Positions 9,644-58,138 of a DNA stretch of 64,000 nt are shown here, piece after piece. Position 1 is the first letter of the stretch. The number at the start of each line of letters is the position of its first letter. The notes beneath the pieces are model-generated. The model was given only the letters and a program-made list of their open reading frames with translations. It was not told where the DNA came from and did no database searches. The stretch is from positions 32,001-96,000 of the IMG/VR virus record IMGVR_UViG_3300029305_002366; one strand, 5' to 3'. Position numbers and translations under genes: made by a program. The DNA is from a virus. Lineage: Duplodnaviria; Caudoviricetes.

Positions 9644-11239
9644 TTACACATTTGGTTTGGGCTGACCATTTGAATTATTAGCTTGACTTTTAACAGTGTT
9701 GTCATTGGTAGGATTATCTTCCGTTGGTCTACCGCCCTTATCATCTTCTGTATTATTTACATCATTACCAGAGGTGTTATAAGAAGTTGCATTAACAGGA
9801 TATTTGTCCATGACTCCTTCTTCTAACTGTTCATCCAACATGGCGAAATATACTTCCTTTGATAAACCTGCACAATTAGCAAGATAAGCAAGCGAACCTC
9901 TACCGATTGTAAATAATTCTTTTGCGATATTAAAATATTTTTCCCTATTAAGATTGGTAATAGGAAGATAGTTAATTTCAACGTCAATATAATTAAGACC
10001 AAGTACATTATAATTAATAACTTTATTCAGTTCGGTTACAATTATATCAACCCATTCAAACACCTTTGCTGTAATCAATTCAAGATTTGTTTGTTGTGAT
10101 GCATAGTTAGCACCGTTACCATTCAATAAGGATATGGCGATACCTAAATCTGAACCAACATTTAGGTCAAGATTTGTTTCGTAGTCACTATCAAACAAAT
10201 CTGTATTAACATCTATACTTCCTATTTTTGTACCTGCGGCAACGGAAAAGAAAGTTGTTCCATTTCCCTTTCTTGTCTGCACAGCTTCTTTAACAGCATT
10301 ATGTTGCTGTTTCTGTTGTTCATTGCTCAAAGCCGAAGTACCTGCGGTCTTGCCCTCTGGAAATGTTTCGTAAATAATTTTATTATTTACCTTATCAAGT
10401 ACATTCCTTTTAGTATTTATAAAATCATCAGAGTAAAGAATATCCTTGATAGCCGAAAGCACAAGTGGTCTACCCCACGGTTCATCAAGATTAGAAGATA
10501 TTTTATGAACAATTGTTTTTGTATTGTCCAATATAAACATCTGGTTGGTATCTTTGTTTCCCTGTTTCCACTTGTTGTATGCTTGTGTAAACTCAGAAGG
10601 ATATCTTCTTAATCTGCTTTCTGCACTTTCATTGCCAAGATTAAAATAACTTAAATCAAACGCAACGACATAAGAATTATTTTTAGTTCCAATTATTCTA
10701 CAATAATCAGTAGGCAATGACTTAATAGACACGTTTAATTTAGCCAACTTTGGTTTTAACGCATTGACCTCTGATATACTATCGGCTTGGAATTGACTTA
10801 TAAACTTCTTTCTATCTTCTTTAGTTTTACCAGTATCAAGATAGTAAAAAGCCACACCGTCAATACATCCCTTTAGAATAGCATCTCTAACAAATTGTTT
10901 GTGTCTTATCTTCTTCATTGCATATCTAACAACTTCTTTGTTAATTTTAGAAGCTTTGTCATTGGCATAGCTTGTTACAATATAATCCAAAGTTGGAAGA
11001 ACCTTAATATAATCAAGAGCATTACGAACAATACCATCACTTGAATAGAATCTTCTTGATATCTTTCTTATAAGTTCATTATTGCTATCTATCATTGGCT
11101 CTTGAATCATACCAATAAGCTGTTCAATTTTATAATCGTATAGAATATTAAAATATGTAGCGGTAGTTACATCGTTATGATACCAATAGCTACACGCTTC
11201 ATAGTTTTTATTATCATAATTCTTTTGTATCTTAGCCAT
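9644..11239 (-). CDS. Portal protein
   Basis: 531 aa after terminase; EPWGRP motif; disordered C-terminal tail. Confidence 0.75.
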   Translation of the reverse strand: MAKIQKNYDNKNYEACSYWYHNDVTTATYFNILYDYKIEQLIGMIQEPMIDSNNELIRKISRRFYSSDGIVRNALDYIKVLPTLDYIVTSYANDKASKINKEVVRYAMKKIRHKQFVRDAILKGCIDGVAFYYLDTGKTKEDRKKFISQFQADSISEVNALKPKLAKLNVSIKSLPTDYCRIIGTKNNSYVVAFDLSYFNLGNESAESRLRRYPSEFTQAYNKWKQGNKDTNQMFILDNTKTIVHKISSNLDEPWGRPLVLSAIKDILYSDDFINTKRNVLDKVNNKIIYETFPEGKTAGTSALSNEQQKQQHNAVKEAVQTRKGNGTTFFSVAAGTKIGSIDVNTDLFDSDYETNLDLNVGSDLGIAISLLNGNGANYASQQTNLELITAKVFEWVDIIVTELNKVINYNVLGLNYIDVEINYLPITNLNREKYFNIAKELFTIGRGSLAYLANCAGLSKEVYFAMLDEQLEEGVMDKYPVNATSYNTSGNDVNNTEDDKGGRPTEDNPTNDNTVKSQANNSNGQPKPNV

Positions 11240-14070: not shown

Positions 14071-14259
14071 TTAACTGGAAGTCTTGCCATAAAATCCACT
14101 ACATTTAACAACATAGTTTCCATTACAGTAGTTGACTTCCATATCTCTGTTTGATTCCTCACCACATTTGGGACAAATTTCATGAGGATTATATTCAGAT
14201 ATTTTCTTTTCAACCATAAATCTATTTTTACACTTAGGACATTTATAATAATATTCCAT
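14071..14259 (-). CDS. FmdB-like zinc ribbon protein
   Basis: YYYKCPKC...CPKCG...SGFY. Confidence 0.7.
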   Translation of the reverse strand: MEYYYKCPKCKNRFMVEKKISEYNPHEICPKCGEESNRDMEVNYCNGNYVVKCSGFYGKTSS

Positions 14260-14481
14260 TTTATTTCCCCTTATATTTTATTTGGTGCTGTCTTGTGTAT
14301 CGTTGCAACACTTAACGGCATAGCCCTCCAAGAGGGCAAGGAGGAAATATATTAATTTAGTAGTTGTCTTTAAATATATTTATAAATTTGTTTTTCACAT
14401 TTACGGCATTTGTAACATATTACCTTACCCATGCCACCATTAATCATGTGAGAATAATAAAATTGATATTCATGGTTACAC

Positions 14482-51780: not shown

Positions 51781-52743
51781 ATGATACATAAATTAAAAGA
51801 AAACGAATGTCAGATAATTGACATATCAGACCGATTAGGTAATGATGATATTGATTTCGATGACCTTGTTCCCGATGTAAACATACAGGACGGAGACTAT
51901 CAGAGAATCAAGGAACTTGAAAAGCGTAGGGCTGAAAAGATAGGCATGGATTCGCTACCAGAAGAAGTGTTTAATCAGGTACTTGAAACCTGTTTCAAAC
52001 AAGGTGGTTATAAAGGATTCAGAGATGCATTATTCTTTGTAACACAGGCAAACTGGGGAGTAAGATGCTCCGATGCAAGAATAATCAAGAGGATAGATTT
52101 TTTAAATGAGTATAACAAGTTCCGTGAAAGCTGTTTATTCTCAGAATTGAAAACAGGAAAGCCACGTACTATGTATATCAATGATGCTATAAAGATGTGT
52201 GTACTTATGGTAACATGGAGTGGTGATTTTTCTCCGCTTGATTGGCTCATTATCTCTGACGGTGGATATAAAAACTATCGCAAACTTAAAGACCCTAAGA
52301 CTGGTAAACCTTTAAAAATTAATGGTGACTTCCAGTATGAACTTGATGAGAACGGAAATAAAATTCTTGACCCATTAAGCTATTCAAGAATCTATAATCT
52401 TATGTCAAAAAAGTTAGTAGATGATTTGGGTATACAGCTTAAAGGTAGAGAAAACTGCACAGATGGTAAAGTAAGATACGCTACTCATTCATTGAGAAAA
52501 TTATATTCTAATAAAGTTGAACAGCTTTTCCAAGAGATGTATGGCGATATGGGACAGGCTCACACAGCGGCTATGCAGTTCTTGAACTGGGATTTAAACC
52601 ACAGCAATCTTGTTACAACAAGTCGTTATTGTGGGGATTTTGAAAGTATTAAAAAGAATATAGATATGAATATGAATCTTGGTCTTAATGTTATAAAGAA
52701 ATATTTTGAGGTAGAAAAGGAAAAGTATGTTAAAAGGTTATAA
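51781..52743 (+). CDS. Tyrosine recombinase
   Basis: R (GVRCSD), K (KTGK), HSLR, H (LNHS), Y (SRYC); no obvious arm-binding domain. Confidence 0.85.
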
Positions 52744-53946
52744 ATTCAGACTTTATCCAGATAAAGAACAAGAGTTACTTATACAGAAAACTTTTGGATG
52801 TGTACGATTTGTGTATAATCAATGTTTAGCATATAAAATAAATAAGTACAAAACAGAAGAAATAACTTTGTCTAAAATTGATGTCAATAATTACAAAAAT
52901 CGCACACTCAAATCTGAGTACGAATGGTTAAAAGAAGTAGATAAATTTGCTTTAGATAATGCTGTTATTAATCTCGATTCGGCATATCAAAAGTTCTTTA
53001 GGGAACACAAAGGATTCCCGAAGTTTAAGTCTAAGAAAAATAATCGCAAGTCTTATAAAACAAATTGTAATTATATTGGCAGACCTACAATAGAAGTTAA
53101 TTTTGATAATCGCAAAATAAAACTTCCTAAACTCAAATGGGTTAAAGTAAGAGGAATCAGAAAGTTTGACGGTAAAATCAAATCAGCTACAATAAGTCAA
53201 ACTCCAAGTGGTAAATATTATTGTTCTGTTTTAGTAGAGCAAGAGAACCACGAACCGTTTACAAGGACTGATTGCAATGTAGGCATTGACCTCGGTATTA
53301 AAGATTTTGCTATCACATCAAATGGAGATAAAATATCAAGTCCCAAGTATCTTGCCAAATCAGAAAAGAAACTTGTTATGTTACAAAGACAGCTATCCCG
53401 AAAGTCAAAGGGTAGTAACAATTGGGACAAAGCAAGAATCAGATTAGCAAGAGCATGGGACAAGATAACTAATCAGCGAACAGACTTCTTACAAAAACTC
53501 TCTACTGAATTAATTCGTAGATATGATGTAATCTGTTTAGAGGATTTGAACGTATCAGGCATGGTTAAAAATCATTGCCTTGCAAAGTCCATATCAGATT
53601 GTTCATGGTCTGAGTTTGTAAGGATGTTGCAGTATAAAGCTGATTGGTATGGTAGGACTATTTCAAAGATAGATAGGTTTTGTCCAAGTAGTCAAACGTG
53701 TAGTTGTTGTGGTTGTATAAATCCTGAGACTAAGGATTTATCTGTAAGAGAATGGACTTGTCCTGAGTGCGGTGCAAAACATGATAGGGATATTAATGCG
53801 GCTAAGAATATTCTTAAACAAGGATTATTAGCAGTCTAATAAACAATTAGTACGGTAGGAATTATCGGAATTTACGCTTGTGGAGTTAGTAGGTTGCGAG
53901 GACGTTGAAGCAAGAAAGAAGTCTTATTACAAGACAAATGGTTCAA
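52677..53946 (+). mobile_element. tnpB-only IS200/IS605-derived element carrying a replacement recombinase tail
   Basis: Bounded by homologous recombinase tails at 52675-52743 and 53945-54022; right end GGTTCAA; no tnpA in window. Confidence 0.75.
52727..53839 (+). CDS. tnpB: TnpB RNA-guided endonuclease
   Basis: [42 protein letters not shown]; catalytic D-E-D intact. Confidence 0.95.
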
Positions 53947-54129: not shown

Positions 54130-54480
54130 ATGAGTTTAATAAGTAGAGGAAGTATTTATATGGCAAGACTACCCATCCTTGACGAACACAGTTCCGTACA
54201 AGGTGGACTCAGACCAGTATTAATTATTCAGAATGATATTGGTAATGCACACGCACCAACGGTACAGGTAATACCATTGACTTCAAAGAATAAAAAAACA
54301 TTACCAATACATACGACCATCAAAAGCGGAGGACTTCTTAAAGAATCCACAGCTTTAGCAGAACAAATACAAACGGTCAACAAAACGATACTTCGCCAGT
54401 ATATAGGTAAGGTAGACGATGAGACTATGAATAGAGTTAATGCTTGTATTATGATTCAGCTTGGTCTTATTAAAAATTAA
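54130..54480 (+). CDS. PemK/MazF-family endoribonuclease
   Basis: RGSIY, SVQGGLRPVLIIQNDIGN, IPLTS, LAEQIQTV. Confidence 0.9.
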   Translation: MSLISRGSIYMARLPILDEHSSVQGGLRPVLIIQNDIGNAHAPTVQVIPLTSKNKKTLPIHTTIKSGGLLKESTALAEQIQTVNKTILRQYIGKVDDETMNRVNACIMIQLGLIKN

Positions 54481-54915: not shown

Positions 54916-55965
54916 ATGGTATATTTAATAGATGAATATTATAAGCAACATCCAGAACGTGAGAATTTAATCAGACCTGTTTTTGATAAGTTTATAAGCG
55001 CAGAAAAGTATCTGCACGAAATGTCATTAGATGAACTTAATGAGATAGTAAAAGATTGGGTACAAAAACCTAACACTATCGAAGCAAGAAGGGGAGCATT
55101 ATCTTTATATCTTTATTGGCTTAAAGAGCAAGGAATAAATGCAAACCCTGACATAGCAAAGGGGATAGTTTTTTCTGAAAGAGAAAATCAATTTTTAATA
55201 TACTCTACCGATGATATTCATAGTATATGGAAAGACTTTGTTAGAGATATTGACATTACTGCTGAGAAGAAAGGAAAGGTATCAAGCACAGAACCTTTAC
55301 TTGTATGTTATGTAGCAGGTATACTTGGATTCTATGGCATGACTAAACAACAGATTATGTCATTACAGCTTAGTGATGTTCAGAATGATGGTATTGTAGG
55401 GTATGATTTACCTTTGACTTCAAAAGACAAAGAGGTATTACTTAAATATAAAGACCTTGATACACTTGCAAACAGACAGCCATTATTAGGAACAGGATAT
55501 ATTCGTTCATCAAGAACAGAACATCCAAACGAACTTATATTAGATAAGGCACTTGGCAAGGTAGATTGTTCGCAAGAATCAAAACCACTCATGAGCCTGT
55601 TGACTTATTCAAGTTTGTATAAACTTGGACTTATGGGGAGAGTTTACGAATATGAAAAGACCCATAGACCAACTGTCGATAATGGCTTTACTATCCCCGA
55701 CTGGTTTAAGGATATGATAAATGAAAGCATGGGTAAAGTGGTAACATTAAGAACGATATCACAGTACAAACAGAACTACATTGCGTACCGTACAGAAAGA
55801 AACGCATATAAGAATGTGTTGAATAACAAGGTAAAGTACGCAAATTCTCAGAATGTAAATGATATTATTGTCAAACTTGATTCTATTATCAATTCTATCT
55901 CAGATGTAAAAATTCAAAATGAATTAAAGAATGTTCAGAATCAGATAAGAGAATTAGTTAAATGA
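54916..55965 (+). CDS. MrpR/YopR-like recombinase-fold repressor
   Basis: SAM-like N-domain (LSLYLYWL), GILGFYGMTKQQIMSLQLSDV box-I-like segment lacking Arg; own promoter at 54854-54882. Confidence 0.5.
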   Translation: MVYLIDEYYKQHPERENLIRPVFDKFISAEKYLHEMSLDELNEIVKDWVQKPNTIEARRGALSLYLYWLKEQGINANPDIAKGIVFSERENQFLIYSTDDIHSIWKDFVRDIDITAEKKGKVSSTEPLLVCYVAGILGFYGMTKQQIMSLQLSDVQNDGIVGYDLPLTSKDKEVLLKYKDLDTLANRQPLLGTGYIRSSRTEHPNELILDKALGKVDCSQESKPLMSLLTYSSLYKLGLMGRVYEYEKTHRPTVDNGFTIPDWFKDMINESMGKVVTLRTISQYKQNYIAYRTERNAYKNVLNNKVKYANSQNVNDIIVKLDSIINSISDVKIQNELKNVQNQIRELVK

Positions 55966-55986
55966 AAAAAATATATAATTTACCCC

Positions 55987-56015
55987 TTGACAAATAAGAA
56001 ATAGTGTGCTATAAT
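55987..56015 (+). promoter_or_regulatory. Promoter of tRNA cluster
   Basis: TTGACA-17-TATAAT with extended -10. Confidence 0.7.
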
Positions 56016-56086
56016 AATATACAGAGAGAGGGAAATAAAAAACCTAATCTCTGTATATTAAATAGTACAAAGAGTAAAATGTATAA

Positions 56087-56162
56087 TGTGGATTCGCCAA
56101 GCGGTGAAGGCACAGGACTTTGACTCCTGCATACGTGAGTTCAAATCTCACATCCACAACCA
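56087..56162 (+). tRNA. tRNA-Gln(TTG)
   Basis: CAGGA-CTTTGAC-TCCTG, TTCAAAT, CCA. Confidence 0.9.
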
Positions 56163-56442
56163 ATGGGACAATTATGTGTTAAGAGAACCGTGTCTACTTC
56201 ATCTCTCCAATAAATAAGAAGATGTGAAAGATTTACTTTCAAAAAAGGTAACGGTGTAGATAGACCTTCTTGCCAAAGGCTATTGAAATTCGGAATGGTA
56301 ATTGACTATACTTGTCAGTGGAGTGGTCAATGATGTGATTCGCTGAAATGCGGATAGGATAGTGAACTGTAGGAACTGCGGATATGTGATAGATGGAGTT
56401 CGCAAGTGCTGTTTGGTTGGTGGTTTTGAACAGCATATTACT

Positions 56443-56516
56443 GGGAATATAGTTTAATGGTAAAACAAGTCCCTTTTAAGGATTAGTTGAGAGTTCGATT
56501 CTCTCTGTTCCCACCA
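56443..56516 (+). tRNA. tRNA-Lys(TTT)
   Basis: AGTCC-CTTTTAA-GGATT, TTCGATT, CCA. Confidence 0.85.
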
Positions 56517-56656
56517 ATTAGATTGGGTACACAATAGCAGTCAAGCTGTTAGGGACAGTTGTGTAGTCCCCTCCAATCTAACACCAATAACCAGATGCAT
56601 TTGTAACACCTCCTTTCTGCCTTGCGGTAGGGGCTAATCTACCGCATAATACATAT

Positions 56657-56771
56657 GACAGTATAGTTCAATGGTAGAACAGGTTTAAATTCTATCTTGT
56701 ATAAGATAGTAACAGCAATTATTCTGCGTACCAAGCACCTGACATGAGTTCGATTCTCATTACTGTCACTA
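56657..56771 (+). ncRNA. tRNA-like RNA with 41-nt insertion in anticodon stem
   Basis: Intact acceptor, D and T arms; insert at 56684-56724. Confidence 0.6.
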
Positions 56772-56774
56772 TTA

Positions 56775-56964
56775 TATGAGAGCCTTGTCAGTTATAGGTA
56801 AGCCTGTCGATGAGGAAGATAGGTGAAATAAACTATGGGTCATTAAACTCAAAATGGCTTCTGTATTATGGTGAACGTAATGCGGAAAGATTGCGTTCCT
56901 GATTCTTGCAAGTCGATACAGTTTAAACATAGTTTCGGTGGTGCAACTCCACCCTCTCATACCA
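56775..56964 (+). ncRNA. ~190-nt RNA with tRNA-like ends
   Basis: ATGAGAG/CTCTCAT stem, GGTGG-TGCAACT-CCACC arm, ACCA end. Confidence 0.55.
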
Positions 56965-57095
56965 ATATCTTCACTTATTATGCTTGTCATAGTAAGACAC
57001 CTCCTAAGATGCCCTGATTGTCAGGGCAAGCAATCTTCACACGTTCTGACATAACGTGTTCCTCCATATAGCCCTACTTGGTAGGGCATACATAA

Positions 57096-57178
57096 GTCCT
57101 CTTGATGGAATTGGTAGACATGGCTGATTCAAAATCAGTTGCGAAAGCGTATGAGTTCGACTCTCATAGAGGACACCA
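57096..57178 (+). tRNA. tRNA-Leu(CAA)
   Basis: GCTGA-TTCAAAA-TCAGT, long variable arm, CCA. Confidence 0.9.
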
Positions 57179-57352
57179 ATAGGAATATCGCTTTTCCTTT
57201 AAGAAAGATGGGATGACACCAACGTTGCAACATTTTTGGTGTGTAAATCGTTCCCTACTTTAAGCGGTGGTGTTAATGGATTCCAAGAGCAATATCCATA
57301 TCGTATACGCAAGATATTGGGGACTTGACTTGTAAAAAGAAGTCTCATTAAT

Positions 57353-57442
57353 GGGGCAATGGCGAAGTTGGATGAAACGCATTGGTCTTAAAAACCAATA
57401 CCCATGTGGTAAACACCGAGGGTTCGATTCCCTCTTGCCCCA
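57353..57442 (+). tRNA. tRNA-Leu(TAA)
   Basis: TTGGT-CTTAAAA-ACCAA, long variable arm, GTTCGATT; CCA not encoded. Confidence 0.8.
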
Positions 57443-57480
57443 CTTTATTTTTTTATATCAAAACAAGGAGTGAATTGTAA

Positions 57481-57780
57481 ATGAGTAGATTCTACAAATT
57501 GAATAGTCGTGACGAGTTTATTTCTTTTGTGGAAAAAATGAGAGATAATTTTGATTGTCCCGAAGATTGGGAGCAGTTCTTTGGGATTAGATTAAAAACC
57601 GATGAAGAAGGAAATGAACTTGAAACTCTTAGAGAGTATGCACAAGAACATAATATTGATAGTGAGCCGTGGAGTTATGAATATCCAGTTATTCTTTATT
57701 GCAATATAGCTTATGACCGTGATAGGTTTGGGAGATGCGGTATAAGGATTCTCGAAATGGAATCTTTAAATAATTTATAA
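57481..57780 (+). CDS. Hypothetical protein
   Basis: RBS overlaps operator GAGTGAATTGTA. Confidence 0.6.
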   Translation: MSRFYKLNSRDEFISFVEKMRDNFDCPEDWEQFFGIRLKTDEEGNELETLREYAQEHNIDSEPWSYEYPVILYCNIAYDRDRFGRCGIRILEMESLNNL

Positions 57781-57802: not shown

Positions 57803-58138
57803 ATGAGTAAATTAAGAGTATGGTGGGTATCACAGATGGGAACAGATGCTATTCATATTCCTGTACAGTCAGTGAAAGAAGCCAAGAAAACAATGGATTT
57901 ACTTTCATATTTTGATTGCTTTCAGTATAATCAGCATATCAGACCTGATTATAGTAATACAGGCGGTCTTGAAATGTATGATGAGGAAACACAGGAATGG
58001 TGTGACTGGGTATACGAAGATGATAATGAATATATCGAGGACATTGATGAATGGTGCGAGAAGTTCCTTTCAAAAGACGAACAGGAAGAACTTAAAAATT
58101 ATGAGAACACACTTCGCTCTCAGGTAAGATTTGATTAA
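57803..58138 (+). CDS. Hypothetical phage protein
   Basis: KLRVWW..PDYSNTGGLEMYD..WCDW. Confidence 0.6.
   Translation: MSKLRVWWVSQMGTDAIHIPVQSVKEAKKTMDLLSYFDCFQYNQHIRPDYSNTGGLEMYDEETQEWCDWVYEDDNEYIEDIDEWCEKFLSKDEQEELKNYENTLRSQVRFD

Follow-up and report, generated by a model that had tools for sequence, protein, structure and literature searches.

The 64,000-nucleotide stretch analysed here, referred to below as the window, corresponds to bases 32001–96000 of a single 111,317-bp virus record (IMGVR_UViG_3300029305_002366; Caudoviricetes; 34% G+C), and its genes form two blocks, on the minus strand up to ~33 kb and on the plus strand from ~35 kb. The plus-strand block contains an operon of five tRNA genes with long spacers (140–327 nt), and these spacers, together with one gene leader in the minus-strand block, carry short RNA units in which the sequence CCUCC stands beside a GC-rich hairpin (Table 1). 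A sequence-only reading had picked out three of these units by a CAT triplet, a CCTCC, and a hairpin, and all three can be found in the sequence. That reading also took them to be of a single form and counted four tRNAs; we find that the first unit (u1) is an element of a different class from the other two (u2 and u3), that a fourth unit (u4) lies in the minus-strand block, and that the region holds five tRNAs as well as a 190-nt tRNA-like RNA. Comparison with related loci leads us to conclude that the units are a real, conserved, and so far undescribed RNA family of a clade of uncultured gut and rumen phages.

Table 1. Positions of the RNA units, tRNA genes, and neighbouring features in the window
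Feature	Position	Strand	Details
tRNA operon promoter	55987..56015	+	TTGACA, 17 nt, TG-TATAAT; 12/12 consensus positions, extended -10
tRNA operon	56087..57443	+	five tRNAs; Rfam tRNA scores 49–72 bits
tRNA-Gln(UUG)	56087–56162	+	
tRNA-Lys(UUU)	56443–56516	+	
Structured spacer after tRNA-Lys	56517..56582	+	CCTCC at 56570 inside a long stem, not exposed (minimum-energy fold of 56517–56656)
u1 ("segment I" element)	56595..56646	+	GUAACA-CCUCCUUUCU, then two interleaved helices; CAT 56598–56600; CCTCC 56609–56613; stem GCGGTAG/CTACCGC 56624–56645; helix S1, GCCU 56619–56622 with GGGC 56631–56634; helix S2, GCGGUAG 56624–56630 with CUACCGC 56639–56645
Interrupted tRNA	56657–56768	+	~41 extra nt in anticodon region
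190-nt tRNA-like RNA	56778–56964	+	ends pair acceptor-like; 3' ACCA at 56961–56964
u2, type II module	56965..57031	+	directly after ACCA (56961–56964) of the tRNA-like RNA; start AAUAUCUUCAC; hairpin B 56974–56996 (CUUAUUAUG / CAUAGUAAG); CAT 56988–56990; single-stranded ACA-CCUCC-UAAGAU; CCTCC 57000–57004; hairpin C GCCCTGA-TTG-TCAGGGC 57012–57028
u3, type II module, tandem copy of u2	57032..57095	+	start AAUCUUCAC; hairpin B 57039–57059, ACACGUU / AACGUGU with CAU in loop; CAT 57050–57052; CCTCC 57061–57065; hairpin C GCCCTAC-TTG-GTAGGGC 57071–57087; tail AUACAUAA
tRNA-Leu(CAA)	57096–57178	+	
tRNA-Leu(UAA)	57353–57443	+	
u4, type II-like module	14317..14365	-	5' leader of zinc-ribbon gene, downstream of tRNA-Glu and tRNA-Met; CCUCC 14344–14340; hairpin C GCCCUC-UUG-GAGGGC 14337–14323; no hairpin B, no CAU
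Zinc-ribbon protein gene behind u4	14071–14259	-	ATG at 14259; 62 aa, four-cysteine
TnpB-like open reading frame	52727–53839	+	370 aa; upstream of tRNA array
PemK/MazF-type endoribonuclease gene	54130–54480	+	Pfam E 7e-26; 1.5 kb upstream of operon promoter
Gene for 111-aa protein	57803–58138	+	Pfam GP17, superinfection exclusion protein (E 1.3e-17)

A family of CCUCC modules at the borders of phage tRNA arrays

The class represented by u2 and u3, which we call type II and which u4 resembles, has a fixed order of parts: a start of the form AAAUC(U/C)NCAC, a first hairpin (hairpin B), a single-stranded (A)CCUCC(U), a GC-rich second hairpin with a UUG loop (hairpin C), and the sequence AUA. The family set comprises 38 distinct modules from the window and 29 related uncultured phage loci (276 kb). 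Pattern scans of viral contigs gave the loci L001, L039, L061, L115, and L117/L118; a scan of one genome for each of 185,579 species returned 80 stretches, the phage-like contig L163 (7.4 kb) being the sole family member among them; 20 bases taken from an unrelated spacer and used as a pattern led to L200 and L201; and a metagenome scan produced 24 loci, 21 with a fully paired stem in the family context and three (L208, L211, and L230) that are chance matches. Most loci were thus found with patterns requiring CCTCC and a paired stem, and the counts of invariance and pairing given below lean on the unselected units, at least 12 of which entered through flanking sequence or the unrelated spacer pattern; the units of related phages, moreover, are not independent events. 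Nothing similar to the units was found in cultured phages, and a search of viral contigs with the neighbouring 349-aa protein as query gave no confirmed relatives.

CCUCC occurs in all 38 modules, preceded by A in 33 and followed by U in 36 (by UU in 20), in a linker that most often reads UGA-CCUCC-UUC. Hairpin B is folded in 34 of the 38, through stems that differ widely in sequence (CUAUGA/UCAUAG, CAUUAUG/CAUAAUG, CUAUGC/GCAUAG, ACACG/CGUGU, and GUUAUGUC/GGCAUAAC). Hairpin C has a constant GCCC/GGGC base with two to four covarying pairs above it, giving 11 different stem sequences, and its loop is UUG in 36 modules and ACG and CUG in one each. All 38 GCCC..GGGC hairpins with a 3-nt loop in the 276 kb of family DNA have a CCTCC at most 13 nt upstream. 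Over the seven pairs of hairpin C, three of which have changed on both sides, 100% of cells are paired, compared with 25–50% when the partner strand is slid; when the two helices found downstream (E and D, below) are included, for 19 sequences, the figures are 97.8% and 28–49%, five pairs have changed on both sides, and none of 500 shuffles reaches the covariation score. RNAalifold independently predicts the same helices and leaves CCUCC unpaired. In local context CCUCC is unpaired with a mean probability of 0.92 (38 modules; a single outlier at 0.26), which agrees with the sequence-only reading in that the complement of a ribosome-binding site is predicted to be exposed.

The modules are bounded by tRNA-type ends. 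Within ~60 nt upstream, 21 of the 38 have either a tRNA 3' end called by ARAGORN (10) or a CCA-A motif (11), and by eye many type II starts sit immediately after the CCA of a tRNA or tRNA-like RNA. Downstream, 32 of the 38 lie directly 5' of tRNA-Leu(CAA) (12 cases) or of a small helix ending in ACCA (20 cases), with a gap of 4–8 nt, and six have other contexts. The ACCA helix consists of a stem E, in which CGGUA/UACCG alternates with CGGCA/UGCCG, and a stem D with a 7-nt loop, followed by ACCA; E, the internal loop, and D together amount to ~12–13 layers, the length of acceptor plus T stem that RNase P measures. The ACCA helix thus appears to be a look-alike of a tRNA end and a putative substrate of the RNase P type. 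In the window u2 is followed by u3, and u4, like the units of L039 and L227, by a less clear variant ending in CCAA(A)UAA. A further conserved hairpin of ~20 bp (GCAAUAUCUUGUGUUUUACG pairing with ..CAUAAGACAUAAGAUAUUGC) stands between the ACCA helix and the next gene in L163 (5250–5320) and L200 (8505–8575), and may be a site for a double-strand-specific nuclease or a regulatory stem.

Several simpler roles for the parts were considered and set aside. Hairpin C is no intrinsic terminator, having no U run after it (it is followed by AUA(A), AAGC, or UAUG), and a terminator scan flagged none of the units; no internal promoters were found at the units, and a TTGAC in the linker has, by eye, no -10 element at a usable distance. 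The notion that the UUG loop stands for the codon read by tRNA-Leu(CAA) was dropped, as the unit of L201 has CUG although it precedes tRNA-Leu(CAA), and many units with UUG follow other tRNAs or precede none. Pairing of CCUCC with a downstream GAGGGAG stretch was likewise rejected, the partner not being conserved (L061, L118, and L220 differ).

Among the window's own copies, u2 and u3 score 51.2 and 50.5 bits with model R1, with CCUCC unpaired at probabilities of 0.96 and 1.0; hairpin B of u2 is predicted at -6.7 kcal/mol, and u3, which closely resembles the units of L118, L163, and L200, is separated from tRNA-Leu(CAA) by 8 nt, its tail running to the 5' end of that tRNA. u4 scores 17.5 bits (E 0.004–0.006) and matches in position the units of L039 and L227, which lie upstream of a protein 68% identical to the one encoded behind u4; that product scores 31.1 bits against Zn_ribbon_8, below the 34.4 cut-off, and is 68% identical to the product of the L039-unit gene. 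The pattern CCTCC-N3-9-GCCCTRN-TTG-NYAGGGC has two matches in the window and none in 100 shuffles, so the u2/u3 pattern exceeds chance. On the sense strands of the two gene blocks CCTCC occurs five times in 62.5 kb (14340, 56570, 56609, 57000, and 57061), and all five sites fall in untranslated RNA around the two tRNA clusters; the totals themselves are ordinary (a second-order Markov model predicts 3.8 and 3.2 where 1 and 4 are observed).

Six window proteins could be matched in the relatives, four of them 32–53% identical and the other two 64% and 74%. Because unconstrained DNA should not still align at such protein divergence, the non-coding similarity is best explained by selection. With Rfam 15 covariance models, applied to 55900–57500 at E values up to 10, to the whole window at gathering scores, and to bases 1–1500 of L217, only tRNAs and chance-level hits were obtained and nothing matched the units' strand and span, so that no known RNA family, ribozyme, or CRISPR repeat in these scans corresponds to them. 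In a check for mimicry of CRISPR repeats there was no hit to a CRISPR-DR family, and the pattern of CCTCC plus hairpin never occurred more than once per stretch in the scan of one genome for each of the 185,579 species, the hairpin by itself not having been scanned. Full-text literature searches for such a module found no description. We regard as established that the family exists, with its structure, orientation, and adjacency to tRNA-type ends, and that its CCUCC is invariant and predicted to be exposed.

The sense strand and the distinct element u1

In the loci checked, every tRNA called by ARAGORN lies on the same strand as the units, and u4 is inverted along with its gene block. The promoter in Table 1 is the sole strong promoter-like site between 55800 and 57700, and on the minus strand of that interval there is no comparable site able to drive the units. 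Because of the strand of the tRNAs, the inversion of u4, the strand of the promoter, and the lack of conservation of the open reading frames (ORFs) on the opposite strand, we take the conserved object to be the sense RNA; a role as single-stranded DNA is conceivable. An 887-nt contig from an RNA library (run X12) bridges 56458–57321, and hence u1, u2, u3, and tRNA-Leu(CAA), and in another run (X19) a loose end joins hairpin C of a relative to tRNA-Leu; other stretches of the region have no such contig cover, and in all cases contigs give no strand, ends, or levels and may derive from DNA carry-over.

Two readings place meaning in the reverse complement of the units. GGAGG-N4-13-ATG is found opposite 33 of the 38 units, and the observation of the sequence-only reading that the reverse complements in the window read GGAGG-N-ATG, opening ORFs that begin MHLVIG.., MTSIISE.. 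(72 aa), and MSERVKI.., is accurate; in the window the stop of a 21-aa ORF even overlaps the start of the 72-aa ORF as ATGA. If these were real small genes on the minus strand, each consisting of hairpin, ribosome site, ATG, and a tiny peptide, one of the alternatives raised by that reading would hold, and this we consider most improbable: the ORFs span 2–78 aa, many of them extend into antisense tRNA, and their peptides are unrelated; the conserved bases fall in different frames in L001 and L118, while L061 has an in-frame stop and no ATG; the 72-aa ORF belongs to one near-identical cluster, with no diverged relative among 5.8 billion proteins of 39–126 aa; and the units are always oriented as the tRNAs, with no promoter on the minus strand of 55800–57700. 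The principal proposal of the same reading was an array of antisense RNAs, cut from the tRNA transcript, whose variable part guides each to one host or competitor start site. The tRNA-operon strand, the promoter matching 12 of 12 consensus positions, and the tRNA-type processing sites at the boundaries all fit excision, and a CAU 5–13 nt upstream of CCUCC in 33 of the 38 units gives, in complement, a ribosome site plus start codon. The gene-specific guides, however, are not supported. The supposed guide is the 3' arm or loop of hairpin B, and it is nearly identical in different phages, including ones whose proteins are 32–53% identical for four of the six matched. Against the 275 start sites of the phage's own genome, the best energies (-27.4, -29.5, and -28.0 kcal/mol) are no better than those of shuffled controls (means -27.2, -26.1, and -26.3), and cultured phages give only chance matches, with E values of 0.5 or worse, these two sets and not the host genome being the ones searched. 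CAU is also absent from 5 of the 38 units (u4, L061, L115, L220, and L227), and its distance to CCTCC varies from 5 to 13 nt. Gene-specific antisense action is thus very unlikely, although excision from the tRNA transcript, the other half of the proposal, is retained in the reading that we prefer.

The element u1, which ends 11 nt before the interrupted tRNA, is defined by a conserved run (GUAACA-CCUCCUUUCUG in the window; GUAAUA-CUCCUUUC(A/U)G in the relatives) and, after it, by a pair of interleaved helices that, as read by eye without a counted control, change in step in ~25 relatives (GCCCU/AGGGC, AGUCU/AGACU, and AGCCU/AGGCU for the first helix; GCGGAG/CUCCGC, GUGGCG/CGCCAC, and GUGGCA/UGCCAC for the second). 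The fold is likely an H-type pseudoknot, or else may be a pair of alternative hairpins. Elements of this class have a short A-rich connecting loop, and what follows them directly is a tRNA, a tRNA-like RNA, or a type II module.

Possible functions of the exposed CCUCC

Most copies of the module read ACCUCCU, the core of the 3' tail of 16S rRNA, which in E. coli is printed as AUCACCUCCUUA and contains ACCUCCU (PMC9032327). Of the two alternatives that the sequence-only reading had named, a mimic of the 16S 3' end is accordingly the better fit, with CCUCC present in 38 of 38 modules and predicted to be exposed. Our preferred reading, to which we assign a probability of about 0.42, is that the modules are leader RNAs that mask Shine-Dalgarno (SD) sites: that of the following gene in cis and, once tRNA-processing enzymes have excised the RNA, perhaps others in trans. 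Each module would be transcribed within a tRNA operon or a 5' leader, its invariant CCUCC held single-stranded between two hairpins as an anti-SD sequence able to pair with SD sites. As long as the transcript is unprocessed, the module would mask the ribosome site of the first gene downstream; tRNA-processing enzymes would then cut the mask off the message at the RNase P-type substrate, whether tRNA-Leu(CAA) or the ACCA helix, and this cleavage would free a hairpin-capped RNA of ~60–70 nt that could bind ribosome sites in trans. The reading supposes that the sense strand only is transcribed, that RNase P cleaves, that the released RNA is stable, and that translation is affected.

Folding predictions are consistent with masking in cis, which they give for all 18 relatives examined and for u4. 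When 18 leaders of relatives are folded up to and including the start codon of the following gene, CCUCC pairs with that gene's ribosome site at a mean probability of 0.66, and at 0.5 or more in 13 of the 18; the core of the ribosome site is unpaired at a probability of 0.15 in the native leaders; replacing CCUCC by AAUAA raises this to 0.43, and deleting unit and helix together, the outcome expected of RNase P cleavage, to 0.70. For u4 the predicted probability of pairing with the ribosome site of its gene is 0.80, and for u2 and u3 the values, for a site over 400 nt distant, are 0.27 and 0.25. The genes that follow the modules differ between phages, with next ORFs of 58–680 aa; the module goes with the junction of untranslated RNA and message rather than with any one gene.

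A number of points weigh against masking. In 5 of the 18 leaders the pairing probability is below 0.5, falling to 0.00–0.02 in L217 and L219, and the folding model is almost guaranteed to pair any exposed CCUCC with a ribosome site, which makes these predictions permissive rather than specific. Twelve units lie in arrays without a nearby ribosome site. RNase P is usually fast, so that a mask in cis could be short-lived, and with GGAGG occurring 49 times on the sense strand of the plus-strand block, messages of the phage itself would also be targets of a free anti-SD RNA. CCUCC is also not conserved in the u1 class, which usually has CUCC and sometimes UUCC, AUCC, or GUCC; only UCCUUU is constant there, and the full CCUCC of the window's u1 is therefore not a family trait. 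Finally, masking leaves unexplained why the loop is nearly always UUG, why modules start with AAAUCUACAC, and why CAUAG is so frequent, features that may point to a protein or nuclease partner.

Because the UUG loop, the AAAUCUACAC start, and CAUAG lack a role in masking, we give a quarter of the weight to a reading based on processing or protein binding, in which the module would act purely in cis on RNA processing or stability, the linker being a ribonuclease cut or a protein landing site and CCUCC a recognition sequence rather than a pairing seed. After the cut, the product upstream would be capped by hairpin B and the tRNA or message downstream by hairpin C; RNase Y of Firmicutes, for one, cuts just upstream of a hairpin that guides it. 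Every tRNA of these arrays has its own conserved structured leader, such as the 137-nt block before tRNA-Leu(UAA) that is 81–82% identical to L200 and L163; stable hairpins stop 4–11 nt short of the 5' ends of tRNAs; the UUG loop and the AUA tail, both conserved, have the look of protein contacts; and the module sits at the border between the tRNA array and whatever gene comes next. Stability or insulation, however, needs no invariant CCUCC matching the ribosome tail, no nuclease of such specificity was found, and the phage's MazF-like gene is absent from the fetched flanks of relatives; this reading is possible but rather unlikely. We also doubt, though somewhat more strongly, that the tRNA operon serves as a factory of processed copies of the 16S tail, cut out by tRNA-processing enzymes with the help, where needed, of the ACCA helix, which would compete for ribosome sites or soak up tail-acting proteins or toxins and so act as a ribosome-tail decoy on translation initiation as a whole. 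A decoy role, in which the abundant spacer RNAs would titrate a protein that binds or cleaves the 16S 3' tail, such as the assembly GTPase Era or a tail-cutting toxin, is distinctly improbable, even though it would suit an operon of tRNAs, which are often read as counter-defence. The tRNA set, Gln(UUG), Lys(UUU), Glu(UUC), and Leu, consists of typical anticodon nuclease targets; the operon also contains a tRNA whose anticodon arm is disrupted, along with tRNA-like RNAs, all potential decoys; the module shares 7–8 nt with the 16S tail and holds them single-stranded; and Era binds AUCACCUCCUUA, a fragment that by itself stimulates the Era GTPase (PMC9032327). On the other side, no such host factor has been identified, and the base before ACCUCC is mostly G in the units but C in the printed E. 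coli 16S sequence (PMC9032327). Very unlikely, finally, is that the units serve processive antitermination in the manner of nut or rrn boxA sites, loading Nus-type factors or a phage protein to protect a long untranslated operon. They do combine a linear motif, a spacer of 2–6 nt, and a hairpin, repeated along the untranslated operon and long leaders; the phage tRNA operons begin with a small hairpin, as B. subtilis rrn operons begin with a small hairpin followed by boxA (PMC13753749); and the u1-class motif of L001 and L163 (CUCCUUUCUGAAAAG) loosely resembles the B. subtilis consensus AUGAUCUUUGAAA. That resemblance, however, requires two insertions and is lost in the window's own u1; compared by eye, the type II motif (UGACCUCCUUC) fits neither boxA consensus printed in PMC13753749 (UGCUCUUUAACA or AUGAUCUUUGAAA), and the search for an N-like or NusG-like gene covered eleven window proteins.

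The surrounding operon and comparison with known systems

Between the promoter and tRNA-Gln, the first tRNA, the operon has a small hairpin. An RNA-library contig (run X16) has 96 other letters in place of 88 bases around this tRNA (56085–56174), and the corresponding phage variant may have a different first tRNA. The interrupted tRNA retains intact acceptor, D, and T arms (Rfam 49.3 bits), and its ~41 extra bases, which include a 7-bp hairpin, replace the expected anticodon arm; ARAGORN calls it only at a relaxed threshold. The tRNA-like RNA that follows contains a T-arm-like hairpin, GGUGG-UGCAACU-CCACC. Comparable RNAs of ~90–190 nt, with acceptor-like pairing of the ends and ACCA, occur in L200 (7647–7767) and on the minus strand of L201 (~9977–10125), and also upstream of units in L218, L219, L223, and L224; their 3' ends are kept among relatives (..CCACCCUCUCCCACCA), and a type II module often begins directly after them. 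The spacer 5' of tRNA-Leu(UAA) (57179–57352, plus strand), whose 81–82% identity to L200 and L163 extends over 137 nt, is also 76.5% identical to L201 over 260 nt; a covarying hairpin closes it 6 nt from the tRNA, and it is another conserved leader RNA. Among the flanking genes, the TnpB-like ORF has a 45.6% identical copy in a similar place in L118 (10562–11650), and a link between the units and the phage's MazF-like gene, which lacks support from the relatives' fetched flanks, is left as an idea.

Phage tRNA arrays are usually read as a supply of codons or as replacements for tRNAs cut by defence systems, with no attention to the spacers. In these phages spacer conservation at least equals that of the proteins, and the spacers contain a family of folded RNAs found neither in Rfam nor in cultured phages. 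Should the exposed anti-SD act in the proposed way, the module would offer a simple and directly testable way to gate or damp translation; even with a processing role only, ~40 aligned, covarying examples are available for experiments.

None of the systems that we compared has the same sequence or the full layout, and phage single-guide RNAs (10.64898/2026.06.01.729453) were dropped as a comparison, a text search of that paper showing no mention of tRNA, RNase P, or hairpins. Like the modules, the spacer RNAs of E. coli tRNA operons (3'ETS-leuZ and internal spacers) are functional RNAs in a tRNA precursor whose ends are made by tRNA-processing enzymes. These bacterial RNAs are Hfq-dependent sponges for other small RNAs, and to our knowledge they have neither an anti-SD motif nor a dedicated tRNA-like helix defining an end. 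RNAC and RNAD of phage T4, whose host is E. coli, are located in the tRNA gene region of that phage, and we know of no anti-SD feature in them; they are described as small, stable, phage-encoded RNAs of still unknown function (PMC9697503). RsaE and RoxS of Firmicutes likewise use unpaired C-rich motifs beside stable hairpins to pair with G-rich ribosome-site regions, but they are free-standing host genes with their own promoter and terminator and with CCCC motifs, and RsaE, which is in Rfam, had no match in the operon at E values up to 10. In the icaR message of Staphylococcus aureus, a C-rich anti-SD pairs with the ribosome site of the same transcript and blocks its translation (PMC3868564); it lies in the 3' untranslated region rather than a leader, is bacterial rather than phage-encoded, and is not known to be repeated or linked to tRNA. 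The lambda nut and rrn boxA-boxB sites resemble the modules in setting a hairpin beside a short linear motif within nascent untranslated RNA, but the motif of the units fits neither boxA consensus printed in PMC13753749, and no partner protein is known. In MALAT1-mascRNA and the tRNA-miRNA units of gammaherpesviruses, a tRNA-like fold stands beside a non-tRNA RNA whose end is set by RNase P or RNase Z. Those systems are eukaryotic or belong to animal viruses, and cleavage at the ACCA helix in the phages is a prediction. If the anti-SD acts in the way proposed, the modules would be a first case in a bacterial virus of a tRNA-like handle by which another RNA is cut out, and would provide a natural design for tRNA-flanked RNA release.

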